Source of the DNA: Malacoraja senta
Lineage: Eukaryota
DNA length: 64,000 bases
NCBI GenBank assembly: GCA_038087875.1
Contig: CM075992.1
Coordinates: 8,620,001-8,684,000 of the forward strand
Direction of reading: 5' to 3'
Shown here in pieces: positions 1 to 53,112 of this stretch; the stretch's first letter is position 1, and every line of letters begins with the position of its first letter. A program made the translations under genes and the position numbers. The notes beneath the pieces are model-generated. The model was not told the DNA's origin. It saw only the letters and a list, made by a program, of their open reading frames with translations, and did no database searches.

Positions 1-129
1 GGGACAGGTTTCCATAGGGCTAGTATGGACATTGTGGGCCGAATAGATACTTGGGCTGGCAGCTCAGTCTGGTGTGCTGGCAGCACTCACTCATGGCTGG
101 TGGGCTGGCAGCTGACTCATGGCTATTCC

Positions 130-3063: not shown

Positions 3064-3290
3064 GAAACCACCACAAAACCATACAAAAAACACATAAAAA
3101 CCACACACAGTTCAGTGGACATTTAGTGTGTTCACTTGATTCACTGCTCAGACAGAGAGTCGTGACCTCTCACTCCCCCAACTTGCAGAGACTGAGCCAC
3201 GCCCACACATCCGGGTTTTATAGTCCCTCCCACTGGAAGGGGCATGGCCTTCATGGCATGATTGACAGGAGAGAGAATCTTAACATTTTT
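3064..3290 (-). mobile_element. Helitron-like internal segment abutting the 48-bp satellite
   Basis: Its reverse complement shares ordered motifs (GGGAGGGACTATAAAA, CTCAGTCTCTG, GGTCACG.CTCTCTG) with the Helitron at about 31355-31440. Confidence 0.55.
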
Positions 3291-6179: not shown

Positions 6180-6247
6180 CAGGACCACAAAGCACACCGG
6201 AACCTAACAAACTCCAGATAAATCCTTTCTCCAGATTCAGCCAACAC
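6180..6247 (-). pseudogene. Gene 1 exon, ECL2/TM5 start (CWLNLEKGFIWSLLG-PVCFVVL), with +1 frameshift
   Basis: ttgcag acceptor and gtaagg donor; ADGR CWL...GFIWS.LGPV motif. Length is 68 nt where phase 2->0 needs 3n+1 (67); the extra T is in GGTTCCGG. Confidence 0.85.
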
Positions 6248-6909
6248 CTGCAATTAAAGAAACATTCATTCATCTATCAATGAGATTTTCAAAAGTAATA
6301 AGTATTTTTTTTTATCTTCTGGGGCTTCTGTTAAAGTCTTGCATCACAACTTCTCACAGCCAGGGGGATATGGCAATGAAGATAGACACAGAATAACTCA
6401 ACGGGTCAGGCAGCATCTCTGGAGAACATGGAGCGGTGACGTTTCAGGTCGGGATCCTTCTTCAGATGCAGTCTCTGAAGTGGCATTTGAGGCTGAACAA
6501 GGGTCTCGACCCGAAACATCGCCTGTTCCTTCTCTCCAGAGATGCTGCCTGCCCCACTGAGTTACTCCAACTTTTTGTGTCTATCTTCGGTTTAAACCAG
6601 CATCTGCATTTCCTTCCTACATATGATGATATTAGCACCAATCAGGGTGAGTGGACTGATGTACTTCCCACAGGCTACGTCAGCTTGAATGGAGCGTCTG
6701 GGTGGGCATGGAGGAGTTGGGCCTAGTCTGTGGCTCTGGGAAAGCAGAGATTGTAAAGGCAGCACACAGTACAAACAGGTATATGGAGGAAGGAACTGCA
6801 GATGCCTGCTTTAAACTGAAGATAGACACAGAGCTGGAGTAACTCAGCGGGACAAGCAGCATCTCTGGATAGAAGGGAATAGGTGACGTTTCGGGTCGAG
6901 ACCCTTCAG

Positions 6910-7290
6910 TCTGTGTGTGACGATGTGTGTCGGTGTGTGTAACCATGTGTGACAGTGTGTGTCACCGTGTGTGGCGGTGTGTGTCACCGTGTGTGTCACT
7001 GTGTGGATGGTGTGTGTCACTGTGTGTCACCGTGTGTGACGGTGTGTGTCACGGTGTGTGTCATCGTGTGTGGCGGTGTGTGACGGTGTGTGCCACTGTG
7101 TGACGGTGTGTGTCACCGTGTGTGTCACTGTGTGTGACGGTGTGTGTCACTGTGTGGCGGTGTGTGTCACCGTGTGTGTCACTGCGTGTCAGTGTGTGAC
7201 GATGTGTGTCACCGTGTGTGACGGTGTGTGTCACCATGTGTGTGACGGTGTGTGTCACTGTGTGTGTCACAGTGTGTGACGGTTTGTGTC
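6910..7290. repeat. GT-rich compound microsatellite (GTGTGTCAC/GTGTGACG)
   Basis: Seen directly. Confidence 0.9.
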
Positions 7291-7298
7291 ATACTGAC

Positions 7299-7534
7299 CC
7301 GTGTTTTCTCCAGTAGCCGTGGGGGTTGACAGAGGCTGCCACGGCCACCACCAGCGCTGGGCACAGGTAGGCGGCAGGGTACATGTATCGCCGCTTCATC
7401 ACGCGTGTGCGGGTGAAGTTCACCACCTTCAGGTTGAGCACCATCAGCCACAGGTGTACGGCCTCCAGCAGCATCCAGCTGAACGCCACCAGCAGCAGGT
7501 AGTGCAGACTACCCAGCACCAACGCACACACTAT
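7299..7534 (-). CDS. Gene 1 exon TM3-TM4 of ADGRE-like adhesion GPCR
   Basis: IVCALVLGSLHYLLLVAFSWMLLEAVHLWLMV.NLKVVNF...YLCPALVVAVAASVNPHGY; ctgcag acceptor, gtcagt donor, phase 0->2, 236 nt. Confidence 0.95.
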
Positions 7535-7823
7535 CTGCAGAGACAGCAGTGGTTACTGCATGCCCACTGGAGACCACCCAATACCCACCCTTCACCCAAC
7601 CCTCACCTACTCCACCCATCCCACACCCCCACCCAATCAAGGCCACCCACCCAAACAGCCAACCCATCCCCACCCACTTTCACCCCCCCCAACCAACACA
7701 CTCCATGCCCCCTGCCCATCCCTGCCCAACAACTACCCACCCCTCACCCATCCACCCCACACCCATCGCTCACCCGCCTCACCCCACACCCACACCCACC
7801 CCACAACCTCACCCACACGTTAC

Positions 7824-8026
7824 CGATGGCCATTTGATGAACATGGTGATGAGGAGGAGCAGCTCGGCCAGGAAGAGGTTGAGGCAGAGGTGCGCTCGGA
7901 TCAGCGTGTAGGGGCCACGGATGGCCTTGCACCAGAAGAAGGTTGCTACGGACAGCAAGAGGAGGAGGAGAGACACGGGCAGCACCAGCAGATGATCACC
8001 AGAGGGCGGTTACTGTGCACCAGGTC
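7824..8026 (-). pseudogene. Gene 1 exon TM1-TM2, frameshifted
   Basis: DLVHSNRPLVII / LVLPVSLLLLLLSVATFFWCKAIRGPYTLIRAHLCLNLFLAELLLLI. It is 203 nt between two phase-0 junctions; the unshifted frame stops at TAG 7946-7948. Confidence 0.85.
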
Positions 8027-8114
8027 CTGAGGGCAACACAGATCAACGTCAGGCAACCGCAGTGTAAATGGTCCAACTTGCACAAATCACACTAAATTAC
8101 TCAGTACTGTGAGT

Positions 8115-8210
8115 CTGAAGAAGGGTCTCGACCCGAAACGTCGCCTATTTCCTTCGCTCCATAGATGCAGCCTCACCCGCTGAGTTCCTCCAGCATTTTT
8201 GTCTACCTTC
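8115..8210 (+). mobile_element. Penelope-like terminal repeat with minimal hammerhead motif (one of many copies in the window)
   Basis: CTGAAGA-A-GGGTC-TC-GACCC-GAAAC-GTC. The same motif follows a Penelope-like endonuclease C-terminus at 33575-33990. Confidence 0.7.
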
Positions 8211-9534
8211 CAGTACTTTGCGAGGTTATTTTCTAAACCAGTATGAGTTCAGACAAAATATGTAGGAAGGAACTGCAGATGCTGGTTTGCACTGAAGATA
8301 GACACAAAAAGCTGGAGTAACTCAGCGGGACAGGCAGCATCTCAGGAGAGAAGGAATGGGTGATGTTTCGGGTCGAGACGTCTGAAGAAGGGCCTCAACC
8401 CAAAACGTCACCCATTCCTCACCAGAGATGTTGCTTGTCCCGCTGAGTTACTCCGGCATTTTGTGTCTATCTGCAGTTCATCATGTTCTCCTACCTACAT
8501 TGCCACTGTATATTTCCAAAACTGTCAATTCAGAATAAAAGGATGTACCTTTAGAAAGGAGAGGAAGAATTACTTTAGTCAGAGGGTGGTGAATCTGTGG
8601 AATTCTTTACCACAGAAGGCTGTGGAGGCCAAGTCAGTGGATATTTTTACAGCAGAGATAGATAGATTCTTGATTAGTATAGGGTGTCAGGGGTTATGGG
8701 GAGAAGGCAGGAGAATGGGGTTAGGAGGGAGAGATAGATCAGCCAGGATTGAATGGCGGAGTAGACTTGATGGGCCGAATGGCCTAATTCTGCTCCTATC
8801 ACATAAATTCTGTTGTTGGTGAAGGGCGGCATGGTGGCGCAGCGATAGTTACTGCCTCAGAGTGACAGATTTCCGGGTTCGATCCTGACATCGGGTGCTG
8901 TCTGTATGGAGTTTGTACGTTCTCCCTGTGATCGCGTGGGTTTTCCCCGGGTGCTCCAGTTTCCTCCCACGCTCCAAAGACGTGCGGGTTTGTAGGTCAG
9001 TAGAAACAAAGAACTGCAGACAAAATGTGTCGGAAGGAACTGCAGATGCTGGTTTATACTGAAGATATGCACAGAATGCTGGAGTAACTCAGTGGGTCCG
9101 GCGGCATCTCTGGAGAAAAGGAATTGGTGATGTTTCAGGTCGAAATCCTTCCTCAGATGCTGGTTTATATTGGCACAAAGTGGTGGAGTAACTCAACGGG
9201 TCAGGCAGCATCTTCAGAGAAAAAGGATGGGTGACATTTTGGGTCGGGACATCTGAAGAAGGGTCTTCAGAGATGCTGCCTGACCCGCTACTACAGCATT
9301 TTGTGTCTCAGTTTGCAGGTTAAATGGCTTCATCAAAGTGCCCCTAGAGTGTAGGATTTGAAAGTGGGATAACATGGAACTAGTGTACATGTGATCAATG
9401 GTCAGCGTGGACCCGGTGGGCTATGGTCAACTGACTGGATAGCTCGCAACATAAAAGCTTTTCACTGTACCTTGGGTCATGTGACTAAAAGCAACAAAAT
9501 GAAACGAAACAAAATTAAATGAAACTGAACTAAA

Positions 9535-9922
9535 TTGTATACTCTGGAGTTTAGAAGGATGAGTGGATTCTTATTGAAACATATAAAGTTATTAAGGGTT
9601 TGGACACGCTAGAGGCAGGAAACAAGTTCCCGATGTTGGGGGAGTCCAGAACCAGGGGCTACAGTTTAAGAATAAGGGGTAAGATGAGGAAACCTTTTCA
9701 CACAGAGACTTGTGAGTCTGTGGAATTCTCTGGCTCAGAGGGCGGTGGAGGCAGGTTCTCTGGATGCTTTCAAGAGAGAACTAGATAGGGCTCTTAAAGA
9801 TAGCAGAATCAGGGTTTATGGGGAGAAGGCAGGAACGGGGTACTGATTGTGGATGATCAGCCATGATCACATTGAATGGCGGTACTGGCTCGAAGGGCCG
9901 AATGGCTTATTGTCTATTGTCT
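9535..9922 (+). mobile_element. CR1 LINE 3' fragment
   Basis: Encodes LYSLEFRR-like sequence, then FPMLGESRTRG; conserved 3' UTR. Confidence 0.85.
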
Positions 9923-10249
9923 AAATTAAATGAAACTAAGCGGAACAAAACTAATCTAAATGAAACTAATTTAAACTAAACTCCACAGAGCGAGCTTACC
10001 GAGGTCACGATCAAACCTGGCCAACGCTCACCTGTACAATAGTTCTATGTTATCCCATTCTCACATCTCACACACTGGGGGCAATTTACAATTAACCTCC
10101 AAACCCGCACGTCTTTGGGATGTGGGAGAAAACGGGAGCACCCGGAGGAAACCCACGCGGTCACGGGGTGAACGTGCAAACGTTTGTGAAGACTTTCCAC
10201 TGACTGGATAGCAGGCAACAAAAACACTATTCGATGCATGTGACAATAA

Positions 10250-10443
10250 ACAAAACAAAATTAAACTCAACTCAACTAAACTGGAATTAATTAAACGAAA
10301 CAAAACTAAAATAAAATGATTTAAACTAAACTAAAATAAATTAAAATAAACCAAACTAATGTAAAATAAATTAAACTAAACTGAAAGAAATGAAACAAAT
10401 CTAAACTAAAAGAAACTAAACTGAACTAAATTAAACTAAACTG
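10250..10443. repeat. (AAACT/AAATT)n array, expanded SINE tail
   Basis: Pentamer repeat matching the CTAAA tails of local SINEs. Confidence 0.8.
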
Positions 10444-10629
10444 TCTACACAGGGACAGCACCGGAGGTCAGGATTGAACCTGGGTCTCTGGCGCTGTGAG
10501 GCAGCAACTCTACCAGCTACTCCACTGTGTGGCGCCCGTGTTCCTGCTGGCTGTGTTCCTGCGGTGCCGGACCGTGGCCCAAGCGGCTGCCCGATGCCCA
10601 GCCCCATGCCCGCTCTCCACCCTTCTCAC

Positions 10630-10785
10630 CTTCATTTCATACTGAGCCAGCAGCAGGGCAAAGCTGGACAGGGTGTTGTAGGTACAGGTGGCGTGAGTCT
10701 TGTTGCCGCTGCTCTCCTGCTGTGTTACCCAGCCGTTGCCCATCCAGGTGCCACAGAGTCTCTTCCTATTGCCATCATCGCCCGG
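10630..10785 (-). CDS. Gene 1 GPS exon (atypical)
   Basis: PGDDGNRKRLCGTWMGNGWVTQQESSGNKTHATCTYNTLSSFALLLAQYEMK; ttccag acceptor, gtgaga donor, 156 nt, phase 0->0. Confidence 0.92.
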
Positions 10786-11149
10786 CTGGAAGCAAGCACA
10801 CCTGAGTATTACACCTCCCTTATACACATACACACACACACATTCACACACGTACACTCATATACACACTCTCACATGTACACTCGCACACACTCACACA
10901 TGCACACTCACAAACATTCTCACACATGCACACACACATACTCACGCACACTCATACGCACACACACAAACTCACACGCACTCACAAACACACAAACACA
11001 CACACGCTCACACACACACACTCCGACTCTATGACCGTGCGGTGAGGTCCTGGACTCTCCCACCAGTGGAAACATAGAAGATGTTGGAATCGATTTTTTT
11101 GCACAAGTTTCTAAAGCTGGCACCCAACCCAGGCGACGATATTTTAATC

Positions 11150-11540
11150 AAAAATAATTTATCCAATTAAAATTTATTTTACATAACGCACCCAGCACCA
11201 TAATACAAAATCACCAAATTATCTAATTACTGAATTTTCAAGTAACTATCTCACCATCCTTATTAAAGATGCATTCTACCCCCCGCGGTGCCCAGCGGTC
11301 CCGGAACTCCCCCAGGGTGCCCGTGGACAGCGCATAGTCCAGGTATCCGGCTCGGGCAGAGCCCTCTTCCACCTGGTGCCGTGACTCGCGGATGGCCAGC
11401 TTGGCCAGGCCCAGGAGCAACCCAACCAGGACATCTTCAGCCCCCCTACCCTCTCCCCTACACACAGGGTGTCTAAAGATGTGGACGGTGGGTGTGAAGC
11501 ACATTTGAGTGCTGGCCCATAGAAGTAGTTCCACAATCAC
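11150..11540 (-). mobile_element. Tx1/L1-clade LINE 3' fragment
   Basis: LLLGLAKLAIRESR...GTLGEFRDRWAPRGVEC, followed by a short UTR and A-rich end. Confidence 0.7.
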
Positions 11541-11624
11541 ATATTACAATCGCTCCACAATCTTAAATCTCTACACATAAAGCAACATCTCCTTTCTAAA
11601 GGTTCATCCTTTTGTTCTGAAGCT

Positions 11625-11937
11625 TTAGTTTAGTTTTTTTAGTTTAGAGATACAGCGCGGAAACAGGCCCTTCGGCCCACCGGGTCCGCATCAACCAGCG
11701 ATCCCCGCTCATTAACACTATCCTACACACACTAGGGACAATTTTACATTTACCAAGCCTACAAACCTGAAGGTCTTTGGAGTGTGGGAGGAAACCGAAG
11801 ATCTCAGAGAAAACCCACGCAGGTCACGGGGAGAACGTACAAACTCCGTACATACAGCACCCGCAGTCGGGATCGAACCCGGGTGTCCGGCGCTGATTCA
11901 CTGTAAGGCAGCAACTCTACCGCTGCGCCACCGTGAC
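11625..11937 (-). mobile_element. tRNA-derived SINE (HE1/V-SINE-like)
   Basis: A box GGTGGCGCAGCGGTAG, B box GGTTCGATCCC, (CTAAA)n tail. About 20 or more copies in the window, e.g. 14875, 15535, 16915, 22635, 22985, 24955, 29003, 37565, 56023, 61453. Confidence 0.85.
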
Positions 11938-12081
11938 CGCCCAGAAGCTGTGGCCTCTGGTCCTAGACTCCCCCACTGGTGGAAGCATAGATGAAGGTGG
12001 TGGAATGGGTTTATTGGGCAGGGATCTCAGGGTCCGCCACGACTGCCGTCTGCCTTGCCCCACCGCTGAGTGCGGGCTCAC

Positions 12082-12272
12082 CTCCTCCTTCACACTGAAG
12101 GTGATGTTGATGGTTGATGTCAGACCCTGCCCCTGGCCGACCACTTTGGTCACCGTCACCACCTTCGAATTAAACTTCACACTGGAGACGTTTCTGCTTC
12201 CCTCCTGCGCCAACATTGGTTCCACGATGGTCTCCAAGTATCTGTAAGCCAGGAAGATGAGGAGAGCGTTCT
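12082..12272 (-). CDS. Gene 1 GAIN subdomain-B exon
   Basis: ENALLIFLAYRYLETIV...KFNSKVVTVT...INITFSVKEE resembles the ADGRE AFISY..L...LNS.VV...V.LTF pattern. Phase 1->0; alternative acceptor at 12281. Confidence 0.88.
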
Positions 12273-13406
12273 CTGTCCCACCTCGTGTGTGAGAGAGAGG
12301 AAGGTGGACAGTCTGATTGTGCTCCAAGTAGAAAGCACTACCACCTCGAAACTACTCATCCCCACTCACTAACCTCATCCCACCCCATCAAACTTCATCC
12401 CATCCCATCTAACCTCATCCCACCCCATCCCCATCTCACCCCATCCTATCCCACGTCATGCTCAACCCCAGACATCTTCCCACCTCAGCAAACCTCATTA
12501 AACCTCATTCCACCGCATCAAGCCTCATACCCACCTCATCAAATCTCATTAAACCTCATCCCCACCTCATTAAACCTCATCCCACCCCACTTCCATGAAG
12601 TTCCTGCATTTACGTCCAGATCCTCATCGTTCCAGAGCTGTGGGGTCCATCATCCTCCATCCACTATTCAACCCCTCCATAACCTCCCTTCCTGGGCTGT
12701 CATAGCTGTCCCTGGATTCCACCCGGAACCTCTGCCTCCCTCCCACCCTGCTTACCCCCTCCCTAATTCCTTCACTCTGCCTTTGTATCGGGAACAAGCC
12801 GGAGCATCGAGCTGGTGCAGTCCACGGATGTCCAGCGTGGTCAGACCAGGGGCCTGGACATGGGTGAACAGTGAAGGCGGACTCCACTGCTGTGGCCTGC
12901 ACTGGCTCGTCATTATGGGACTTCACGGGGAGCAGAGCAGCTCAGGGCCGTCCCAGGATAGAAGATCATAAGGTCATCAGTGATAGGAGTAGCCCATCAA
13001 GTCTACTCCGCCATTCAATCATGGCTGATCTATCTCTCCCTCCTAATCCCATTCTCCCCATAACCTCTGACACCCGTACTAATCAAGAATCTCTATCTCT
13101 GCCTTAATATCCACTGACGGCCTCCACAGCCTTCTGTGGCAAAGAATTCCACAGATTCACCACCCTCTGACTAAATAAATTCTTCCTCATCTCCTTCCGA
13201 AAAGAACGTCCTTTAATTCTGACCTCTAGTCCTAGACTCTCCCACTAGTGGGAACACCCTCTCCACATCCACTCTATCCTGGCCTTTCACTATTCTGTGT
13301 GTTTCAATGAGGTCCCCCCTCATCTGACTCCCAACAATCCGACCCAGGTGAAGGCTGGCAGGCTGCTCTCCGCCCCGCGGACGGGGTAAGGAGAGCGGGC
13401 AGGTAC

Positions 13407-13526
13407 CGTGATCGTCCTGTCCCAGCAGCGAGAGGGAGCGAGCCACCAAGATGCTGTTGTAGGCGGTCAGGGAGATGATGGATCTCTCCGTCACTTTGTC
13501 CTTCTGTAGAGAAGCCATATCAACCG
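13407..13526 (-). CDS. Gene 1 GAIN exon
   Basis: AVDMASLQKDKVTERSIISLTAYNSILVARSLSLLGQDDH; ccgcag acceptor, gtacct donor, 120 nt, phase 1->1. Confidence 0.8.
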
Positions 13527-13953
13527 CTGCGGGCAAAGGGGACAGGTTACACGTGGTGAGAAGTTGGCAGGTGAGTCAATGGTGAGATGGTGGACAGGTG
13601 AGTCAACGGTGAAGATAGACACAAAACGCTGGAGTAACTCAGCAGGACAGGCAGCATCTCTGGAGAGAAAGAATGGATGACGTTTCGGGTCCAGACCTTT
13701 CTTCAGACTGATGCTGCCTGTCCCGCTGAGTTACTCCAGGATTTTGTGTCTGTCTTCAATTTAAACCAGCATCTGCAGTTCTTTTCTACACATTGCGTCA
13801 ACAGAGAGATGGTGGACAGATGTTGTACAGGTGAACCCAGGTCTCCAGCGCTGCAAGGCAGCAACTCTACCGCTGCGCCACTGTGGCCGTGGGGAGAAGG
13901 CGGGAGAATGGGGTTCGGACGGAGAGAGATGTGGAGTGCGGGGTGTCCCTTAC

Positions 13954-14131
13954 CGATGGTGGATGACAAATAGCGCGTCTTGTTGTTGCGGAGTAGGTTG
14001 AGGGCAACGTCGGCGATGGCAACCTCCATGGCCTGCAGCAAGTGGCCAAGCGCTGCCTGCTGCTGCTTCTTCTCCAGGCGGCCCCATTCCTCCGGGCTGG
14101 CCAACACCGACTGTGAGAAATTACTGAGCGC
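13954..14131 (-). CDS. Gene 1 GAIN subdomain-A helical exon
   Basis: ALSNFSQSVLASPEEWGRLEKKQQQAALGHLLQAMEVAIADVALNL (W..L...Q....LLQ..E pattern of ADGRE GAIN-A); phase 0->1, gtaagg donor. Confidence 0.88.
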
Positions 14132-15362
14132 CTTGAGAGAGGAGGGGCCGTGTTTTAACATGAACATAAAACATTTTATAATCCATCACACTTTGTCTTT
14201 ACGGAATGATTCATATCACAAGGGCAGATATTTTAGAGGAAACAATAATAATGTGGACAAAAATGCTGGAGAAACTCAGCGGGTGAGGCAGCATCTATGG
14301 AGCGAAGGAATAGGTGATGTTTCGGGTCGAGACCCTTCTTCAGGAAACAATGATCAGATTAGATTAGTGTCTTGTGTAAATTATTATTGCAATGAAATTC
14401 ATCAGAATTCTACACCGCATAGAAACATAGACATTAGGTGCAGGAGTAGGCCATTCGGCCCTTCGAGCAAGCACCACCACACAATATGATCATGGCTGAT
14501 CATCCCAAATCATTACCCCGTTCCTGCTTTCTCCCCATATCCCTTGATTCTGTTAGCCCTAAGAGCTAAATCTAACTCTCTTGAAAACTTTGCCCACGCT
14601 TCACTTTCAAATTGTGCCGAGCGCAGAAAGTCTTGGTGCCACAGAGTCACGTGGCCCATCTCGTCCATTAGAACCAAGATGACCCATCATCCTACCCCAG
14701 CCAGAGAGCACTCCTGTACTCTGGTTCAGTCTGAGGAAGGGCCTCGACCCGGAACGTCACCCATTCCTTCTCTCCAGTGATGCTGCCTGTCCCAGCTGAG
14801 TTACTCCAGCATTTTGTGTCAGCCTACTATCTACCTCATTGGTGACCCTCGGACTAAATGTCCAAGACTACGGGTGGTCACGGCGGCGCAGCGGTAGAGT
14901 TGCTGCCTTACAGCGAGGCTGCGTCGGAGACCCTGGTTCGATCCCGACCACCGGTGCTGTCTGTACAGGATTTGTACGTTCTCCACGTTACCTGCGTGGA
15001 TTTTCTCCTAGATCAGCGGTTTCCTCCCACACTCCAAAGATGTCAAGTTTTGAAGGTTAATTGGCTTGGTAAATGTAAAAATTGGCCCGAGTGTGTGTAG
15101 GATAGTGTTAATGTGTTGGGATCGCTGGTCGGCGTGGGCTGAAGGGCCTGTTTCCGCGCTGTATCTCTAACCTAAACTAAACTAGAGGGCATGGCTTTAA
15201 AGTGAGAGGGGCAAAGTTTAAAGGAGGTATAAAGGAGATGATGGTCAGCATGGACTCAATGGGCCGAAGGGCCTGTTTGAATGCTGCATCTCTCACACTA
15301 AATGAATGAAATGGTGCCTGGCCTAAAACTGCTGCAGGATAGTGCGTGCAGAGAGAGCTCAC

Positions 15363-15458
15363 CTCCATTGCAATTCCAGCATCAGAACTGTTGCATGCTT
15401 TGTCCTTGAAGCTTTGAATCTTCTTTACAATGTCTGGGAGCGCAGCCTGCGTGTCCTT
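15363..15458 (-). CDS. Gene 1 stalk/GAIN-A exon (duplicate copy 2)
   Basis: KDTQAALPDIVKKIQSFKDKACNSSDAGIAME; gtgagc donor; phase 0->0; exact acceptor uncertain. Confidence 0.7.
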
Positions 15459-16178
15459 CTTTCGTGTTAGAGGGAACAAAACATGAAACAATTGTAAGAT
15501 TTGTATACAACTTTAAAAATGATAAGGAAGATGGGTGGCACGGAGGCGCAGCGGTAGAGTTGCTGCCTCACAGCGCCGGAGACCCGGGTTCAATCCCGAC
15601 TGCGGGTGCTGTCTGTACAGAGTTTGAACGTTCTCCCTGTGACTTGTGTAAGTTTTGTCCGAAATCTTCGATTTCCACCCACACTCCAAAGACGTACAGG
15701 TTTGCAGGTTAATTGGCTTGGTATTAATGTAAATTGTCTCTAGTGGGTGTAGGGCAGTGCTGGGGATCGCTGGTTAGCGAGGACTCGGTGGGCTGAAGGG
15801 CCTGTTTCCATGCTGTATCTCCAAATTAAACAAAACTAAAATTAAAGGTCTGGTGTAAATTGGCAGCCGGGGAGAGAACACTGATGTCGTGTGTGGGAAG
15901 GAACAGCAGATGCTGGTTTAAACCAAAGGTAGACACAAAATGCTGGAGTAACTCAGCGGGACAGGCAGCATCTCTGGAGAGAAGGAATGGGTGACACTGC
16001 CTGTCCCGCTGAGTTACTCCAGCATTTTGTGTCGAACACTGAAGTTGGTTCACTTATCCTTCCCGTGAAGTTGAAGGATGTTATGGTGATGGTGGTGATG
16101 TTTTTGGCCGATTCAATGTGGCTGAGAATGGAATGTTGCCTCTGTGTAAAGATCCTGCAGGATAGGGTGTCACCTCAC

Positions 16179-16271
16179 CTTGTCCGGTCCTCCTGCGGCA
16201 GATTTGTTGCATGCTTTCTCCTTGAAGCTTCGGGTCTCGTTTACGATGACTTGGATCACGGCCGCATCTAT
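16179..16271 (-). CDS. Gene 1 stalk/GAIN-A exon (duplicate copy 1)
   Basis: IDAAVIQVIVNETRSFKEKACNKSAAGGPDK; catcag acceptor, gtgagg donor, 93 nt, phase 0->0; paralogous to 15363-15458. Confidence 0.7.
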
Positions 16272-18374
16272 CTGATGTTTTAAGGGAAAGGATACATGTA
16301 AGAGGTTTAGACCGAGGATTAGCAGCGAGTCCAAGGATAAGTAGGAGGAGGTGTCTGAGAGTTGTCACGTGGCCCGACCCGAAACGTTAGGAGAAAGGGT
16401 GTCGACCCAAAACGTCACCCATTCCTTCTCTCCAGAGATGCTGCCTGTCCCGCTGAGTTACTCCAGCTGGTTGGGTCCCTTTTGCTGGCCCTGGCATCGG
16501 TTTTGCCCATGCCCATCTTTATCGGCCAGATACATTTGGGCGGCGCGGTGGCGTGGCGGTGGACTCATGGAAACAGACCCTTCGGCCCAACTTGCCCACA
16601 CCGGCCAACATGTCCCAGCTACACTAGTCTCACCTGCCCGCGTTTGGTCCATATCCCTCCAAACCTGTCCTATCCATGTACCTGTCCAACTGTTTCTTAA
16701 ACGTTGGGATAGTCCCAGCCTCAACTACCTGCTCCGCAGCTTGTTCCATACACCCACCACCCCCTGTGTGAAAAAGACACCCCTCAGATTCCCATTAAAT
16801 CTTTTCCCCTTCACCTTGAACTATGTCCTCTGGTCCTCGATTCCCCTATTCTGGGCAAGACACTCTGTGCATCTACCCGATCTATTCCTCTCATGACTTT
16901 GTACACAAACTAGTCACCGTGGAGTTACTGCCTCACAGCACCAGAGATCCAGGTTCGATCCTGACTACGGGTGCTGTCCGTGCGGAGATTGTGCCTTCTC
17001 CCCGTGACCGAGTGGGTTTTCTCCAGGTGCTCTGGTTTCTTCCCACACTCCAAAGACGTGCAGGTTTGAAGGTTAATTGACTTCTGTAACTTATCCCTAG
17101 CGTGTAGGATGGAACGAGTGCATGGGTGATTGTTGGTTGGCCTGGACTCGGTGGGCCGAAGGACCTGTTTCCACAATATATCTCTAAACTAAACTATGCT
17201 AAAGAAGGGAAACACTGAGTGTTAATCACTTCCTTTCTCCCCGTGACCGGCACCCATGCTGCAGATGGTTGCATTGGTGGGGTTTGCATTACAGCACAGG
17301 TCAGAAGCTACTCCTAAAGGTTCAGTACAGCAGCACAGCTGGTAGAGCCTTGCCTCACAGCACCTGAGATCCAGGTTTGATCCTAACCTTGGGCGCTGAC
17401 CATGCGGAGTTTGCATGCTCTCCCTGTGACCGCGTGGATTTTCCCTGGTCTCCTCCCACATCCCAAAGACGTGCGGGTTTGTATGTTAATTGGCCCCCAG
17501 TGTGTAGGGAGTGGATGAGAAAGTGGGATAATGATAACATAGAACTGGTGTGTGAATGAGTGATCGATGGTCGGCACGGAGTCGGTGGGCCGAAGGGCCA
17601 GTTTCCAGGATGTATCTCTGAACTAAATTAAACTAAACTAAAAGGAAGATGAGGGTAGGTGCACAAAGTTGGGGAAGCTCCTGATATTCTGGGCAGAGTA
17701 CCAGATGCTCAAAGCACAATGTGCTGGAAGTACTCAGCAGGTCAGGCAGCATCTGTGGAAGGAATGGATAGATGACGTTTCAGGCCGGGACCCTTCATCA
17801 GACTGGGAGCAGAGAAGATGCTTCAGTCTGAAGAAGCGTCCCGGCTCGAAACGTCACCTGTCCATTCCCTCCACAGATGCTGCCTGACCCGCTGAGTTCC
17901 TCCAGCACTCTGCTTTTTTTCTCCAAATTCCAGCAAATGCAATTCCTTCACTGCTGCTCAATTGGATTAAGAATCAGTGAATTGGTCAGTTGGCATAACA
18001 AGAAGCATGTGTATGTATTCAGGAGAGAGTTGGATTTAGCTCTTAGAGCTAACGGAATCAAGGGCTATGGGGAGAAAGCAGGAACGGGTACTGATTCTGG
18101 ATGATCAGCCATGATGATATTGAATGGCAGTGCTGGCTCGAAGGGCCGAATGGCCTACTCCCATACTTATTGTCTATGTTTCTATGCGTATCGGCGGAGT
18201 GAGCCTTGAGACCGTGAGGAGTGAGTACTGACGGGAGGGGGATCAAATGTTGAGCCGACTGCAACAGGATTCCTTGCACAGCCTCCACTCTAACGGTGGG
18301 GACAGATGCCGGGGCTGTGGGAGGGAAGGATGGGAGCTGGAGAGGTGGTGGGAGAATCGTGGCCATGTTCTCAC

Positions 18375-18442
18375 CTGCCAGGGAGCTTTGGTAGGTTGTT
18401 CCGCAGTGGGATTAATGGTTCCACAGCTGACAGTCGTTTCAT
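18375..18442 (-). CDS. Gene 1 short T/P-rich linker exon
   Basis: DETTVSCGTINPTAEQPTKAPWQ; strong polypyrimidine-ccag acceptor, gtgaga donor. Its phase 1->0 bridges the IgV exon to the GAIN exons. Confidence 0.75.
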
Positions 18443-18509
18443 CTGGAGAACAAAGAAAACATTTTGGATTTAGATTGGGGACGGGATCATTCCCCAGAGC
18501 ACAAACAGA

Positions 18510-18850
18510 GTGGTAAGGGTGGCACAGTGGTTGGGGTGGCACAGTGGTTGGGGTGGCACAGTGGTTGGGGTGGCACAGTGGTAGGGGTGGCACAGTGGTA
18601 GGGGTGGCACAGTGGTAGGGGTGGCACAATGACAGTGGTAGGGTGGCACAGTGGTAGGGGTGGCACAGTGGTAGGGGTGGCACAGTGGTAGGGGTGGCAC
18701 TATGACAGTGGTAGGGGTGGCACAGTGGCAGGGGGCACAGTTACACAGTGGCACAGTGGCATGGTGGTAGGGGTGGCACAGTGACAGTGGTAGGGGTGGA
18801 TCAGTGGCATGGGGCACAATTACAGTGGTAGGGGTGGCACAGTGGCATGG
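18510..18850. repeat. 17-bp G-rich minisatellite (GGGGTGGCACAGTGGTA)n
   Basis: Seen directly. Confidence 0.9.
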
Positions 18851-19111
18851 TGGTCGTGACTGTCAGTGGTCGGAACCAGCTGCGCCACAATGCTGCCCCT
18901 AAAGTTTGAAATTCCGTTGTTAGACCAACCTCCCCTTGGATATCAGGAACGAGGGCAGCATGGTGGCGCAGCGGTAGAGTTGCTGCCTCACAGCGCCACA
19001 GACCCGGGTTCCATCTTGACTACATGTGCTGTCTGTACGGAGTTTGCACGTTCTCCCTGTGACCTGCGCGGGTTTTCTCCGGGTGCTCCGGTTTCCTCCC
19101 ACACTCCAAAG

Positions 19112-19892
19112 ACATAGAAACATAGAAAATAGGTGCAGGTGTAGGCCATTCGGCCCTTCGAGCCTGCACCGCCATTCAATATGATCATGGCTGATCATCC
19201 AACTCAGGATCCTGTACCTGCCTTCTCTCCATACCCGCTGATCCCTTTAGCCACAAGGGCCACATCTAACTCCCTCTTAAATATAGCCAATGAACTGGCC
19301 TCAACTACCTTCTGTGGCAGAGAGTTCCAGAGATTCACCACTCTCTATGTGAAAAATGTTTCTCTCATCTCGGTCCTAAAGGATTTCCCCTTTATCCTTA
19401 AACTGTGACCCCTTGTCCTGGACTTCCCCAACATCGGGAACAATCTTCCTGCATCTAGCCTGTCCAACCCCTTAAGAATTTTGTAAGTTTCTATAAGATC
19501 CCCCCTCAATCTTCTAAATTCTAGCGAGTACAAGCCGAGCCTATCCAGTCTTTCTTCATATGAAAGTCCTGACATCCCAGGAATCAGTCTGGTGAACCTT
19601 CTGGATACTCCCTCTATGGCAAGAATGTCTTTCCTCAGATTTGGAGACCAAAACTGTACGCAATACTCCAGGTGTGGTCTCACCAAGACCCTGTACAACT
19701 GCAGTAGAACCTCCCTGCTCCTATACTCAAATCCTTTTGCTATGAATGCTAACATACCATTCGCTTTCTTCACTGCCTGCTGCACCTGCATGCCTACTTT
19801 TAATGACTGGTGTACCATGACACCCAGGTCTCGTTGCATCTCCCCTTTTCCTAATCGGCCACCATTTAGATAATAGTCTACTTTCCTGTTTT
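19112..19892 (-). mobile_element. Young CR1 LINE 3' portion nested in a SINE
   Basis: ORF 19345-19839 is nearly identical to the C-terminus of the 42324-44024 RT; SINE halves flank it (18955-19110 and 19893 onward). Confidence 0.92.
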
Positions 19893-20186
19893 TACGTACA
19901 GGTTTGTGGGTTAATTGGCTTCAGTAAAATTGTAAATTGTCCCTAGTGTGTGGGATAGTGTGCGGGGATCACTGGTTGGCGCAATTTAGCTGTGGTAAAA
20001 TTGGTGTAGGATTGTGCTCGTGTATGATTGACCGCTGGTCGGCGGAGAACTCGATGGGCCGAAGGGCCCGTTTCCACGCTGTATCTCCACACCCTGTTGT
20101 AAAGGGTGGTTGAGGGGGGGGGGGTGGTGGGGGAGCACGGTAGAAGCTGGGGCACCTTTGCCCCGGAGGTCAAGCATCATACTCAC

Positions 20187-20522
20187 CAGGAGGGGAGACG
20201 GCTATGAGGTTTAGTTCTGTTTTAAGATCATTCCCAAGGCCAGGTACAATGATGCGGCAACAGTATACTCCCTCGTCCTTCTTCTCCAGGTCCTTTATGG
20301 TCAGGGACACATTGCCCTTCCGTAAATCTCCACGCAGTTCATATTTGGAGCTATTTCCAGGGGGGATCGTGCTTGTCGCCTCAAATTGCGGGAAAAGATG
20401 GTTGTAGCAGTCCCACAAAGAGCATTCCCCTCGACCCCAGCAGGTTGTGTACAGTACATTACTGCTGTACGTGCAGGGGAGAGTGACTGAAGACCCCAGT
20501 ACTCCCCTGATCTGTGACTCCT
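20187..20522 (-). CDS. Gene 1 TIM/HAVCR-family IgV domain exon
   Basis: EESQIRGVLGSSVTLPCTYS...TCWGRGECSLWDC...KYELRGDLRKGNVSLTIKDL...DEGVYCCRIIVPGLGNDLK. Six Cys with CWGRG.C and YCCR..PG..ND.K TIM signatures; ttacag/gtgagt, 336 nt, phase 1->1. Confidence 0.95.
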
Positions 20523-22238
20523 CTGTAAAGCAGAAGTGACAGACATTCCCTTCAGTTCAGTTAGAATCATAGAGTCATTACATTACATTGACTTCTCCAA
20601 TTTCAGGTAGTCCTTGCTTTCTCCCTCCTTCCCCTCCCCTTCCCAGCTCACCCAATGCCTACTGTCTCCGCCTCTTCCTTTCTTCTTCCAGCCCCCCACC
20701 ACATCAGTCTGAAGAAGGGTCTCGACCCGAAACGTCACCTATTCCTTCGCTCCACAGATGCTGCCTCACCCGCTGAGTTTCTCCAGCATTTTTATCTACA
20801 TTACATTAAGTGGTTTCACTGCAACCGAGGTTGATTAGTGCCATCTGCATTGTGTAGTTTTACTCAAGGGCAAGCTGGGCGGATGAGCAGTCCTCTCCCA
20901 GCAAGAAAGAAAGAACACAATACACAACAGAAATTAAACATAACACACAAAACATCCACCACAGTGGGACCAGCACTTGCTGCTGTGATGGAAGGCACAA
21001 GCGTTCAGTCAGTCAGTCTTCCTCGTTCTGTGGACCTGTGGTCAGGGCCCTGAACCCTCCGCTGTCGCCACTATGGACGGCCCCATGTACAGGCCCTCTC
21101 GCCGGGACGATGGACACTCCGACGTCGGGACGGATCGGGAACACCCAATGGCTCGGAATTCCCGAATCGACGGCTTCGCGATGCCAAGTCCACAGGCCCA
21201 GCGGTCGGGGCACCTATTCAGGTAATCCTCGTCGAAGGCCGCAGGCAGCTCCACGATGGTAAAGTCTGTGCCGAGATGGCTCAGGTATGATGTGACGATA
21301 ATTGAGATGTGTTTTTTCATCAATGTTTCTAATGTATAGTAAACCCTTGTTATAATGGACCATGGGGGGATGATTGATTGTCCGTTATTGCCGGTTGTCC
21401 GCTATAACAGAGTAAGGGATTACAAAGTGTAGGAAGGAACTGCAGATGCTGGTTTAAACCGAAGATAGACACAAAAAGCTGGAGTAACTCAGCGGGACAG
21501 GCAGCATTACTGGAGAGAAGGAATGGGTGACGTTTCAGCAGTGGCTCCGAGTCGCCAGTCTTCGAGCAGGGCTTGCAGCTGCCCATCTTCAGCAAGATCT
21601 CAGTGTCGGACTGAGGGGAGGGGGGTGGAGGTGGAGGACTGCCGGCCAACCCGGCGAAACAGGCAGAGCCGAGCTGGAACCAGCGGCTACAAGTCCGGGG
21701 CTTCCCCGCCAGCCCAGGGCCACCCCAGACACATCCAGACAGCGACGGGACACCAGGGAGGGGACGGAGACAGCCCAGCTGCAACTCAACAGCTGCCGCA
21801 GCGACGGAGAGCCAACCCCGACCTCCGCAACGCAAACGCAAGCCTGCACACAATGCAGCACCACCGTTGCCAAGACTGTTTTATAGCTAGTGACTATAGT
21901 ATATATTATCTTTTATATTAAATGTATCTTGTATAATCTTGTATTGAAAAGAAGAATCTTAAAAAGTAGTTTGATTAGGCAGTGGGACTTTTTCTCGAGG
22001 CCACAGGCCATTTGCTCTTTCTCGATGTCACATTCCTGTGAAGTGCTGTAAAGACATGGCTCAGGGTTTATGACTGTTTATACTAGTCCAAGACAACAAG
22101 GCTGGAAAGATAATAGATTCTGTGATTCAATCTTTTGTTACGTTTAATTATACTTATGTTGAGATAAGAGATAAGACATGCTAGTGACCAGTATCTTTGC
22201 TAGTGACCTATGACCTGGACATGTGCAGTCGGAATACC

Positions 22239-22376
22239 TTCTTCTTCTTGCGTATGGCGTGCACAGCCTAAAGTTGTAAGACAACTTGTTCTGTTTGATT
22301 TTTTGTTTGTGCACGTCAGGTTGATTGCATTCGTTGAAACAGGGTGGACCACGTGAAGGTTGCAATCTCCCACCCT
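22239..22376 (-). mobile_element. 138-bp non-autonomous retroelement with (GAA)n tail and 12-bp TSD
   Basis: TSD AGTCGGAATACC at 22227-22238 and 22377-22388; 3' stem-loops; no obvious pol III A/B boxes. Confidence 0.85.
22323..22376 (-). ncRNA. Minimal HDV-like self-cleaving ribozyme (predicted)
   Basis: P1 AGGGTGG/CCACCCT, P2 GATTGCA/TGCAATC, P3 ACC/GGT, L3 TTCACGT, very short P4, J4/2 CGAA. All elements are in HDV order. Confidence 0.75.
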
Positions 22377-22489
22377 AGTCGGAATACCCAACTCGCTTAT
22401 TAAAATGATTTAAAACAACCCCAGAATGTTGATCATAGTTTGGCATCGAGGAAGGTTAGCACAGATGTGGGGACAATCATTCAACTCAC

Positions 22490-22534
22490 CAGATTGAAGA
22501 ATGTGTTCAATGCAAATGATCAAATAGAAAATAG
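22490..22534 (-). CDS. Gene 1 signal peptide exon 2
   Basis: AIFYLIICIEHILQS; tttttctag acceptor, gtgagt donor, 45 nt, phase 1->1. Confidence 0.72.
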
Positions 22535-24732
22535 CTAGAAAAATAAATTGATAGTTTAGATCCAAGCTGAATAGTTCACAAACGATAGATTTAAAGTATT
22601 TTAATATTGAATTTAACAATAGAAGATACTCAAGGGCGGCCCAGTGGTGCAGCGGTAGAGTTGCTGCCTCACAGCGCCAGAGACCCGGGTTCGATCCTGG
22701 TTACGGGTGCTGTCTGTACGGAGTTTGTACGTTCTCCCCGTGACCGCACGTGTTTTCTCCAAGATCTTCGGTTTCCTCTCACACTCCAAAGATGTACGGG
22801 TTTGTAGGATAATTGGCTTGGTATAAATGTAAAATTGTCCCTAGTGTGTGTAAGGTAATGCTAATGTACGGGGATTGCTGGTCGGTGTGGACTCGGTGGG
22901 CCAAAGAGCCTTTTTCCGAGCTCTATCTCTAAACTCAACTAACAGCCTAATCAACAAGATCTAGGCCAAAGATTCAGTAATTTTAGACTTTGGAGGTACA
23001 GCATGGAAACAGGCCCTTCGGCCCACCGAGTCCATGCCGACCAGCGATCCCCGCACACTAACACTATCCGACATATACTAGGGACAATTATAATTTTTTA
23101 CCAAAGCCAAGTAACGTACAAACCCGCACGTCTTTGGAGTGTGTGAGGAAACAAGAGCACCCGGGGAAAACCCACACGGTCACAGGGAGGAACGTACAAA
23201 CTCCGTACAGACAGCACCCGTAGTCAGGTTGGAACCCGGGTCTCTGGCGCTGTGAGGCAGCAACTCTACCGCTGCGCCACCATGCTGCTCGTAGTTGGTG
23301 AGCAATAAGGTAGAGGTAGATAGAGAGATACAGCACTGAAACAGGCCCTTCGGTACACTGAGTCCATGCTGACTGACCTAAAGGAGCATCCTTTAATTCT
23401 GAGGCTGTGACCTCTAGTCCTAGACTCTCCCACTAGTGGAAACATCCTCTCCACATCCACTCTATCCAAGCCTTTCACTGTTCCGTACGTTTCAATGAGG
23501 TCTCCCCTCACCCTTCGAAACTCCAGTGATCCTGCTAAACTAAGTTCCTTCCTATCCGTCCTAAAGAGGTGCGTTAAAATGAGGTTTCACTGTATTTTCT
23601 CACTGAGGCTATTTCACAACCGTCACCATGTTTACATCTGACAACACTTCAAAGATTGCATCAAAGGAGGATATCCACAGAGCGCTTGTTGCAAGATTAT
23701 CCTGTGAACAAGACACTGAGCAAAATGAGCTGACCAATCTCACGCTCGATGCAACACAAAGCCTATCCATCACGCCTTGTCTTTGCAGAATGATTCTTAT
23801 CACTAGAGAAAATATTTTAGAGGAAACAATGCTCAAATTAGATTAGTGTATTGTGTTAGTTATTATTGCAATGAAATTCATCAGAATGTTACATCTCATA
23901 GAAACATAGAAATTAGGTGCAGCAGTAGGCCATTCGGCCCTTCGAGCCAGCACCGCCATTCAATATGATCAAGGCTGATCATCCAAAGTCAGTACCCCGT
24001 TCCTGCTTTTCCCCCCGTATCCCTTGATTCCGTTAGCCCTAAGAGCTAAATCTCTCTTGAAAACATCCAGTGAATTAGCCTCCACTGCCTTCTGCGGTAG
24101 AGAATTCCACAGATTCACAATTCTCTGGGTGAAAAAGTTTCTCCTCATCTCAGTCCTGAATAGCCTACCCCTGTGATTCTTAAACTGTGTGGCCCCTGGA
24201 TCTGGACTCCCCCAACATGGGGAACATTTTTCCTGCATCTAGCCCGTCCAATCCTTATGAATTTTATATGTTTCTATAAGATATCCTCTCATCCTTCTAA
24301 ATTCCAGTGAATACAAGCCCAGTTATCTACCTCACTGGTGACCCTCAGACTATCTTTGATCGGACTTTGCTGGCTTTACCTTGCACTAAACGTTATTCCC
24401 TTATCATGTATCTGTACACTGTAAATGGCTCGATTGTAATCATGTTTTGTCTTTCTGCTGACTGGTTAGCACGCAACAAAAGCTTTTCATTGCACCTCAG
24501 TACACGTGACAATAAACTAAAGTGAACACAGGAACAGGCCCTTCGGCCCACAATGTGTGTGCTGAACATAGCTTCAGAACCAACTCTCATCTACCTGCAC
24601 GTGATCCACATCCCTTGATTCCCTGTACATCCATAGTCTTTTAATCACCGTTATCATATCTGTCCCCACCTACACCCCCCTATGTGGATGGTGCCGTGCA
24701 TTGACGGGTGGGTGGGGAAGCAGCTGACTCAC

Positions 24733-24763
24733 CGTGAAGCCGGCGTCCACTCTCCCTCCGCAT
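24733..24763 (-). CDS. Gene 1 first coding exon (MRRESGRRLH)
   Basis: 31 coding nt starting at ATG, then a gtgagt donor in phase 1. Joined to the next exon it gives a basic n-region plus hydrophobic h-region. Confidence 0.6.
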
Positions 24764-48425: not shown

Positions 48426-49232
48426 GGTATAGAATGGAATGTTCAAGGTCGCAGGCTCTGCGCCAAGTTTTTCAGCCCTGATAATTATTAGACTGTTCTT
48501 TTTTGAATTTAAAACAGTCTTGATGGTCTGCCTTTGTCTCAGTACTATATGATCTATTATTTAGATATACAGCATTTAACTAACCAACTAATTAACTATA
48601 TATACGCAATAAACTTAATTAACGCTAAAGGTTTAATGTATTATACTAACATGACTAACTATATAGTAGGAAGGATGGGGGAGGTTAGACAGATATTCTA
48701 AATACTAATTATGAGTTAACTAACATATAGGCTAATGAAAAGTGTGATTAATGATGAGGTACTTTAACCCATAATAACTCTATTTTATTTTATTTTAAAT
48801 CTTCTAGCTTTTCTATTTTATTTTAAATTTTTTAGCTATTAATCGACCTGACATGATAATTTTGGTTATAAGTGGAGGAAACCGACTAACATTGGATGAT
48901 ACTGTACTAGGGGGGGGGCAAAGCCCAGTGCATAATTCCATCAACGGAGGTCAATTTAAAATTAATCTTAGCCACCATATGTGGCTTTTTTGTAAGATAT
49001 CGCTTTTTTGATAACTTACACTCACTTTTTTTGTTTATTCACTATTATGAGTTGTATGATTTAACAATCTTTATGAACACTTCATTTTATGTTTTTCTCT
49101 TTCCCTTAATTATGTTTAATAGTGCCAGGAGATGTAAAACTAGTGCAGAAATTATGAAGGACAACCTTGGACTCGTGGTTTCGAGATACTTGGCTGCATC
49201 ACATGAATCATACATTCTGGTAATAATAGCCA

Positions 49233-52761: not shown

Positions 52762-52961
52762 NNNNNNNNNNNNNNNNNNNNNNNNNNNNNNNNNNNNNNN
52801 NNNNNNNNNNNNNNNNNNNNNNNNNNNNNNNNNNNNNNNNNNNNNNNNNNNNNNNNNNNNNNNNNNNNNNNNNNNNNNNNNNNNNNNNNNNNNNNNNNNN
52901 NNNNNNNNNNNNNNNNNNNNNNNNNNNNNNNNNNNNNNNNNNNNNNNNNNNNNNNNNNNNN
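52762..52961. other. Assembly gap (200 N)
   Basis: Run of N. Confidence 1.
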
Positions 52962-53112
52962 CTCGACCCGAAACGTCGCCCGTTCCTTCTCTCCAGAGAT
53001 GCTGCCTGTCCCGCTGAGTTACTCCAGCATTTTGTGTCTACCTTTGATTTAAACCAGCATCTGCAGTTCTTTCTTACAAACTTCAATCTCGTTTTCTTTT
53101 GACTTTTGACAG

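Follow-up and report, generated by a model that had tools for sequence, protein, structure and literature searches.

We describe a family of adhesion GPCRs in which a TIM-type IgV domain stands N-terminal to an ADGRE-like GAIN-7TM, and which is elasmobranch-wide and not private to one genome. One copy lies on the minus strand of the window, the whole 64,000-nucleotide stretch of Malacoraja senta DNA analysed here. Judging from its sequence, a TIM origin of the IgV and an ADGRE origin of the GAIN-7TM of this copy are both supported, and IgV, GAIN and 7TM very probably belong to one transcript. The overall explanation that we favor, with confidence and doubt in about equal parts, is an elasmobranch adhesion-GPCR family of single origin that works by a phosphatidylserine-tether mechanism and of which the window copy is decaying. 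The chimeric GPCR proposed in a preliminary description of this DNA thus stands as an architecture, but not as an intact receptor encoded by the window copy as assembled.

The phase-compatible chain of ten minus-strand exons given in that description was borne out in its coordinates by the splice-site check, with AG acceptors at 9/9 and GT donors at 10/10 sites, and the spliced chain gives an open frame of 438 aa with leader, TIM-type IgV, GAIN and GPS. The features of the gene are the following.

24733..24763, minus strand: exon 1 (ATG, 31 nt, ends in phase 1), first half of the split leader; GT donor and open frame, 92-95% identical in paralogs
22490..22534, minus strand: exon 2, putative leader h-region (phase 1-1); AG/GT, resembles the N-terminus of sawfish P0001
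20187..20522, minus strand: exon 3, TIM-type IgV (phase 1-1), six Cys, FG loop LGND; Pfam V-set 4.7e-16, best PDB matches TIM-1/3/4/2, in the GPCR-borne IgV clade (95/95)
18375..18442, minus strand: exon 4, linker with Cys (phase 1-0); AG/GT, found in paralogs and an Amblyraja model
16179..16271, minus strand: exon 5, a tandem duplicate of exon 6 that opens GAIN subdomain A; it and exon 6 hit the same stretch of P0001, 77-80% DNA identity to exon-6 counterparts in paralogs
15363..15458, minus strand: exon 6, likewise opening GAIN subdomain A; tblastn to sawfish P0001 389-425
13954..14131, minus strand: exon 7, GAIN subdomain A helices; Pfam GAIN E 0.036, P0001 E 3e-13
13407..13526, minus strand: exon 8, GAIN subdomain B; open frame, P0001 483-517 matched weakly in tblastn (E 0.62)
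12082..12272, minus strand: exon 9, GAIN subdomain B; Pfam GAIN E 0.075, P0001 E 2e-5
10630..10785, minus strand: exon 10, GPS and Stachel, NTL|SSFALLL at the cleavage site (without His) and 2/4 GPS Cys absent in the translation compared with orthologs; Pfam GPS E 5.4e-4
7824..8026, minus strand: exon 11, TM1-TM2, net -1 frameshift and in-frame TAG at about 7946-7948 as assembled; aligned with C5399 and paralog B, codon 465 being the first stop
7299..7534, minus strand: exon 12, TM3-TM4, sequence intact but out of frame after exon 11; 70% identity to P0001 708-785, E 1e-25
6180..6247, minus strand: exon 13, ECL2 and the first part of TM5, with 1 nt inserted (68 nt versus 67) in the paralog alignment
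C16:8616055-8619830, minus strand: the four last exons (TM5-7, tail, stop), beyond the left edge of the window; alignment to paralogs and translation

Taken alone, the GAIN and GPS exons match weakly (Pfam E 0.036, 0.075 and 5e-4), yet they align to sawfish and shark receptors. When 6 TIM and 10 ADGRE proteins were used in tblastn, neither an EGF exon nor a TIM mucin/TM exon was found within the gene, and the two introns 3' of the IgV (best 19-residue hydropathy 1.21 and 1.45) yielded no TM exon. This agrees with the earlier statements that the gene is free of EGF exons and of a TM exon completing a separate TIM gene, and a separate TIM gene with its own TM exon was rejected, as no such exon follows the IgV. 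Nor was a second leader or EGF exon found upstream of the GAIN within the gene. A misassembly at 16.3-20.2 kb, raised earlier as an objection, is unlikely and was rejected because this stretch is gap-free (the sole N gap of the window is 52762-52961) and the exon order of the window gene recurs on an independent contig, C5399.

The IgV exon of the window gene is of phase 1-1 and encodes six Cys, and the best 15 PDB matches of its product were all TIM/HAVCR (E 3e-24 to 6.5e-17), the next family following at 1.7e-7, which upholds its first assignment to the six-Cys TIM/HAVCR type. Six conserved Cys are the criterion for a TIM IgV in the excerpted text of PMC4913284, and 6-7 Cys were counted in 15/15 domains of the family. 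In the true TIM gene of the M. senta genome the IgV exon is also of phase 1-1; the true TIM genes sit on other contigs. In the IgV tree the GPCR-borne IgVs formed one clade (95/95) apart from the single-pass TIMs, with the sawfish and skate copies as a subclade, and the TIM lineage that donated the IgV is an open fork in this tree, which had only two outgroups. Among six orthologs the IgV varies more than the 7TM (60% versus 77%).

The search for this domain architecture found IgV plus GAIN gene models, named for example 'ADGRE3-like', in 11 elasmobranch species, with the whole 7TM in 7 of them. All 20 proteins with IgV plus GAIN and/or 7TM in a set of 334 came from these 11 species, and no such receptor of holocephalans or bony vertebrates was seen in one set of 65 matches or among the best 150 of 2501. 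In several species RefSeq lists more than one isoform (for Mustelus, isoforms with one, two or three IgVs), and the same fusion is contained in a separate annotation of S. torazame (GCB80667.1). The family proteins are already in RefSeq under ordinary ADGRE names. In the Mustelus and Heterodontus members Pfam GAIN, GPS and 7tm_2 were all above the curated cut-offs, and family members had no EGF Pfam match. The predicted structure of the Heterodontus member matched the GAIN and 7TM of CD97 (8ikj, E 2e-34), a fold assignment only; the model is modest (pLDDT 65.7, pTM 0.43, IgV region 45-75). The autoproteolysis consensus CxCxHL|T/S was present in 8/10 species, and there is no His in the sawfish and whale shark sequences or in the window copy (NTL|S).

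The 7TM trees, which did not include vertebrate ADGRL1-4, placed the family as one clade (100/100), again with sawfish and skate copies as a subclade, nested within the ADGRE1-4 group (100/99; 99 in another tree). Thus, the separate trees for IgV and 7TM came out as the preliminary description had expected. It is extremely unlikely that the family is instead related to the Ig-bearing ADGRF receptors: although a language-model feature search put ADGRF5/F3 clusters first (score 0.90), the family 7TM profile gives full-length ADGRE-type 7TMs 227-322 bits and ADGRF 68-76, the structure search ranked ADGRE first, and ADGRF membership was rejected by the AU test of an IgV+ADGRF clade (p-AU 0.003).

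All support for the join of IgV and GAIN comes from predicted models, and predictors may have joined adjacent TIM and ADGRE genes. We consider such an annotation artefact very unlikely: no mucin/TM exon was found downstream of the IgV and no further leader or EGF exon upstream of the GAIN, the true TIM genes are located on other contigs, the fused IgVs form a clade that matches the 7TM tree, and the join is in frame in all 11 species. The junction itself rests on gene models and their conservation, and when short transcript-derived proteins spanning IgV and GAIN were sought, 3 of 3442 candidates matched, all of them single-pass shark TIMs, a result that speaks neither for nor against the junction.

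As to the origin of the family, the congruent IgV and 7TM trees fit a single exon-shuffling event that would predate the shark/ray split. Once, and prior to this divergence, a TIM IgV exon would have displaced the EGF exons of an ADGRE cluster member of the ADGRE1-4 type, both kinds of exon being of phase 1-1. Phase 1-1 exons in both the donor (TIM) and the acceptor (ADGRE) genes support such a swap, and together with the trees they strengthen the proposal that the IgV took the place of the EGF array. The window gene is located among ADGRE-like genes (34/48 genome matches are on C16), and an EGF-type ADGRE neighbor at 53-61 kb of the window has the phase 1-1 EGF and leader exons that had been cited as normal for ADGRE. 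Forms with SRCR and IgGFc-binding domains were also seen, and reshuffling of ADGRE-like N-termini has occurred repeatedly.

In the window copy the TM exons do not continue the receptor as first described: exon 7824-8026 has 203 nt versus 204 in the paralog, with indels of +1, -1 and -1 that lead to the stop at codon 465, and exon 13 is one nucleotide too long. As assembled there is no intact seven-TM reading frame in this copy, whereas paralog B and 7 other species have it unbroken. The window copy belongs to a set of at least five recent duplicates, and we regard it as probably a decaying pseudogene, somewhat likelier than an intact gene with assembly errors because all five copies examined in the M. 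senta genome carry lesions. Assembly error in a multi-copy region is a less probable but serious alternative, according to which the four one-base indels are false and the window copy is intact. These indels are single-base changes, several within short base runs, as in sequencing errors; net -1 is followed by +1 with the frame intact beyond them, they are absent from the other copies that hold these exons, unplaced copies also carry scattered 1-bp indels, and the ectodomain from IgV to GPS is unbroken. However, lesions elsewhere include exon-scale losses too large for base-calling error (copy B has a truncated IgV exon and two copies are without GAIN or TM exons), pN/pS between copies A and B is close to 1 (0.88), the neighboring EGF-type ADGRE is clean, with 4/5 matched TM exons aligning gap-free to Amblyraja, and the search yielded a single skate model, P0222, which is a rearranged fragment. 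This alternative concerns the window copy alone and is compatible with the family-level explanation.

The intact ectodomain followed by a stop within TM1 could also mean that a secreted IgV-GAIN protein of 464 aa, a decoy or opsonin, is made from the window copy. The Heptranchias and Rhincodon models likewise stop after the GPS, but they end in unrelated sequence, like incomplete models, and a stop codon with six exons downstream is generally expected to provoke nonsense-mediated decay, so that we find secretion improbable.

For the intact orthologs, we propose that the IgV tethers a target membrane via the TIM CC'/FG cleft. Phosphatidylserine binding by the family IgV is plausible from the sequence motifs, and exposed phosphatidylserine bound via the metal-binding ND is the most likely tethered ligand, at slightly less than even confidence. 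In the consulted part of PMC9611583 the metal-binding site (MILIBS) is WFND, of which N114/D115 are required. The ND is kept in 12/15 family IgVs and lost in 3/15, and the full WFND is found in 0/15, as the W is absent in all; a Chiloscyllium fragment is also without ND. The FG loop is LGND in the window and sawfish copies and LWND/VWND in the other skate copies. At the position of the WFND of TIM-1/4 the window IgV reads LGND, and phosphatidylserine sensing is therefore something we infer for it, less strongly than for the shark orthologs. An appreciable minority chance is that the receptor is real but its IgV has come to bind protein, glycan or pathogen ligands instead of phosphatidylserine, with tandem IgVs diversifying the specificity. 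The loss of W and in part of ND would fit this, as would the varying number of IgVs (1-3), the clustering of skate-copy differences in loops (mostly at IgV positions 20-23, 32-47, 55-56 and 91-99), pN > pS in 4/6 pairs of skate-copy IgVs (small counts), and the protein partners that the TIM-4 IgV also binds according to the available portion of PMC7408610. In contrast, in all 10 species compared at least one IgV retains the ND, and LFND, the form seen most often in the family, is shared with elasmobranch single-pass TIMs (LFND or PFND). Such a shift would liken the IgV to other fast-evolving myeloid receptors. In the proposed mechanism, tension on the cleaved GAIN, whose HL|S is conserved in 8/10 species, would free the Stachel SSFAVLM. 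The analogy with ADGRE2/E5 suggests that the 7TM would then signal via G proteins, with myeloid cells as the probable site.

Compared with ADGRE1-4 (EMR1-4, EGF-TM7) and ADGRE5/CD97, the family shares GAIN-GPS-7TM and the split leader, and most orthologs share CxCxHL|S and the Stachel core, whereas the EGF domains are replaced by one to three TIM-type IgVs found only in elasmobranchs in these searches, and the window copy carries a frameshift and is without the GPS His and two GPS Cys. TIM/HAVCR proteins (TIM-1, TIM-3, TIM-4) are the closest structural relatives of the IgV, with the same six Cys, a mostly kept ND and a phase 1-1 exon, but they have a mucin stalk, single TM and tail, none of which was found after the IgV exon here, and the family IgVs differ in the missing W, clade and locus. 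TIM-4 is unable to signal alone in the accessible text of PMC8224564; here, the binding domain is carried on a GPCR. BAI1 binds through thrombospondin repeats, both BAI1 (ADGRB1) and GPR56 (ADGRG1) belong outside the ADGRE subfamily, and to our knowledge a TIM IgV is absent from both. These two adhesion GPCRs are reported as phosphatidylserine binders in the parts consulted of PMC9723945 and bioRxiv 10.1101/2020.04.24.059840, and their likeness to the family would be a functional analogy. ADGRA2/3 and ADGRF3/F5 also have an Ig-fold domain N-terminal to the GAIN, but the family 7TM is unrelated to theirs at the subfamily level, and the Ig domains listed in the consulted section of a 2026 review are I-set and C1-set, with no V-set or IgV (PMC13197933).

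No description of a TIM-IgV adhesion GPCR was found in the literature, subscription papers and bioRxiv supplements being outside the scope. In the portions consulted, the words 'shark', 'cartilaginous' and 'immunoglobulin' are absent from the text of PMC8584163 and shark names from its supplement, and the supplements of PMC11788884 contain no V-set/7tm_2 pair. The significance of the finding is tempered by the repeated reshuffling of ADGRE-like N-termini, by a function that is predicted only and by a window copy that is probably broken.

The family adds a ligand-binding module that we did not find described for adhesion GPCRs, and offers a datable case in which an exon was shuffled from one immune receptor family to another, in the most ancient lineage of jawed vertebrates that has adaptive immunity. 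A simple defined ligand is wanting for most adhesion GPCRs, and a natural TIM cleft on a GAIN-7TM could provide a handle on ligand- and force-dependent Stachel activation by means of phosphatidylserine liposomes or beads. Tentatively, we suggest that sharks and rays may have evolved a single-chain efferocytosis receptor, in which a TIM phosphatidylserine tether is combined with a force-gated, Stachel-activated ADGRE GPCR. If true, one polypeptide would do the job that in mammals is done by TIM-4 and a separate signalling partner.

The architecture proposed in the preliminary description, a TIM-type IgV domain on an ADGRE-like adhesion GPCR, was found in other chondrichthyans, all of them elasmobranchs. 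Searches with the IgV exon, and then with the sawshark match, led to full-length proteins with V-set, GPS and 7tm_2 domains. According to domain profiles, the IgV is combined with GAIN and/or 7TM in 20 of 334 collected proteins, originating from 11 species: the 7TM is whole in seven (Pristis pectinata, Pristiophorus japonicus, Mustelus asterias, Cetorhinus maximus, Heterodontus francisci, Scyliorhinus torazame and Carcharodon carcharias), and models are partial in four (S. canicula, Heptranchias perlo, Rhincodon typus and Chiloscyllium punctatum). Their database names are 'ADGRE1/2/3-like', or they are listed as uncharacterized or hypothetical. When 1.84 billion representatives were searched with a profile built on the IgV-GAIN half, 2501 matched, and in the best 150, which were examined, P0155, P0128, P0122 and the sawfish receptor P0001 span both domains in one alignment or rank top with both, while P0202 has both in pieces; all are elasmobranch. 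The IgV was absent from both Callorhinchus matches. Most members have one IgV, S. canicula two, sawfish three and the Mustelus isoforms one to three. Multiple RefSeq isoforms exist for family members, and several isoforms for one gene suggest transcript support. The same fusion is present in an independent S. torazame annotation. IgV-GAIN-7TM is a real, conserved elasmobranch receptor architecture.

In the Malacoraja senta window, the ten exons described from the sequence alone are correctly placed with canonical splice sites, and their joined frame stays open for 438 aa, starting at the ATG and running through the GPS exon. The 336-nt exon encodes a V-set domain (Pfam E 4.7e-16), and its assignment to the TIM/HAVCR type held, as the top 15 matches among solved structures all belong to TIM/HAVCR domains (E 3e-24 to 6.5e-17; next family 1.7e-7). 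After the GPS exon come seven further exons, of which three TM exons are inside the window and four are beyond its left edge, close by. As had been claimed, neither an EGF exon nor a TIM mucin/TM exon was detected within the gene (tblastn, 6 TIM and 10 ADGRE proteins). Misassembly, named earlier as an alternative, is unlikely: the sole N gap is far off, and contig C5399, which is independent, has the order leader-IgV-linker-GAIN-GPS as well. In the skate copies, the first GAIN-A exon occurs twice in tandem (exons 5 and 6, window 15363-16271, minus strand), whereas it is single in sawfish and sharks. A short-period tandem repeat of ~3 kb (window 1-3070) occupies an intron between TM exons, and the same place in paralog B, the second copy on the window's contig C16. 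The neighbouring features are:

42264-44024, plus strand: ORF of 586 aa resembling LINE reverse transcriptase
49230-53100, plus strand: ORF of 605 aa resembling LINE reverse transcriptase
53103-61190, continuing to C16:8.705 Mb, plus strand: conventional EGF-type ADGRE, with a long Pro/Gly/Thr repeat exon at ~59.9-61.1 kb

The two ORFs are probably of CR1/L2 type and L1 type, respectively. Most exons of the EGF-type neighbour are 85-100% identical to Amblyraja P0134.

The TM exons of the proposed chain do not continue it intact: the window copy is broken as assembled, with the first stop at codon 465. In an alignment with paralog B (C16:10.153-10.188 Mb), three indels (+1, -1 and -1) fall in its TM1-2 exon and one (+1) in its TM5 exon. 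At its GPS the sequence is NTL|SSF, and Cys two and four are missing; because these pair with each other, they seem to have been lost together, perhaps before the frameshift arose. Damage was detected in 5/5 copies examined in this genome. Paralog B (C16:10153329-10188108, plus strand) has lost most of the IgV exon, shortened by deletion or repeat insertion, and has an open 636-aa IgV-less GAIN-7TM frame if the exon is skipped, so it could be a receptor without ligand domain. Of the two copies on C5399, one is without the GAIN exons and carries a +1 indel, and the other shows several -1 indels; in the C2755 copy, 4 nt are deleted and exons are missing. The pN/pS between the window copy and paralog B is 0.88 (12.5 synonymous and 35.5 nonsynonymous differences). 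Assembly error instead of decay is a less likely explanation for the window indels; in its favour, each changes a single base, some of them lie in short base runs, and polishing works poorly in multi-copy regions. The EGF-type neighbour aligns cleanly to Amblyraja (4/5 matched TM exons gap-free), which suggests that the scaffold is locally accurate. We consider it somewhat likelier that the window copy is a real pseudogene, and it is probably non-functional. In Amblyraja P0222 (XP_032906736.1, RefSeq), rearranged IgV-type family exons are joined to an EGF-type ADGRE, which suggests rearranged copies in another skate.

The trees agreed with the expected dual ancestry. In the 7TM trees, where paralog B (7TM intact) represented the frameshifted window copy and vertebrate ADGRL1-4 were left out, the receptors with an IgV make up a single clade (100/100). 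It is nested in an ADGRE1-4-like group (100/99), with CD97-like and ADGRF receptors placed elsewhere, and joining it with ADGRF was rejected (p-AU 0.003). The 14 GPCR-borne domains cluster together (95/95) in the IgV tree; their clade falls within the TIM radiation, away from the single-pass TIMs of elasmobranchs, and the tree, which has only two outgroups, does not single out a sister lineage. Sawfish groups with the Malacoraja senta copies in both trees. The locus lies among ADGRE-like genes (34/48 genome matches on C16; the EGF-type neighbour starts at window 53.1 kb, plus strand), in five sharks IgV-type and other ADGRE models were judged, from contigs of equal length, to share a contig, and TIM genes are on contigs other than ADGRE-like ones. 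The proposal that a phase 1-1 IgV exon stands in place of EGF exons fits the phases, since the second leader exon and EGF exon of the neighbour, and the IgV exon of the true TIM gene of Malacoraja senta, are all phase 1-1. The simplest reading is a single phase-compatible exon replacement predating the shark-ray split; the direction and mechanism of the transfer are what we infer. The single-pass TIM gene(s) of this skate lie at C1951:305.4-334.9 kb (IgV with PFND, TM exon 29 kb downstream), with a second IgV at 363.8 kb.

The family is ADGRE by descent but carries the IgV instead of EGF domains, and although the IgV is TIM-derived, the whole receptor is not a TIM protein. An IgV-GAIN-7TM receptor was not found described in the literature within reach of the search, subscription journals lying beyond it; sharks are named neither in the text nor in one supplement of the main vertebrate aGPCR phylogeny (PMC8584163), and the consulted portion of a 2026 review has only I-set and C1-set among Ig domains (PMC13197933). 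P0264, P0136 and P0230 are ADGRE-like GAIN-7TM proteins with an N-terminal SRCR (one axolotl) or IgGFc-binding domain, and represent other swaps at the N-terminus within this subfamily. Because such forms exist, swapping is not unique to the IgV family, though its IgV-bearing product appears undescribed.

The Heterodontus member was modelled, at modest confidence, with an Ig sandwich followed by GAIN and seven helices, and the model matches the GAIN+7TM of CD97. The six IgV Cys are kept in 15/15 family domains, the metal-binding ND pair in 12/15 and the HL|S cleavage site in 8/10 species. In TIMs, WFND is described as the phosphatidylserine (PS) binding site, where N/D substitutions impair binding (PMC9611583, PMC4913284). 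PS is a tentative candidate ligand here, with a chance slightly short of even, and LFND/PFND being common to shark single-pass TIMs and the fused domains counts in its favour. The less probable possibility that the IgV binds another ligand draws on WFND occurring in 144/231 IgV-only matches (44 not parsed) and 0/15 family domains, on LGND in the window copy and sawfish, and on the IgV being less conserved than the 7TM (60% vs 77%), with skate-copy differences concentrated in IgV loops. If PS is the ligand, the IgV would bind exposed PS, and tension would free the Stachel for G-protein activation in phagocytes, in line with reports that GAIN is cleaved at CxCxHL|T, that the Stachel acts as activator and that ADGRE2/E5 are mechanosensors (PMC13197933). 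BAI1 and GPR56 are reported PS binders, and the family may work like them via a different module.
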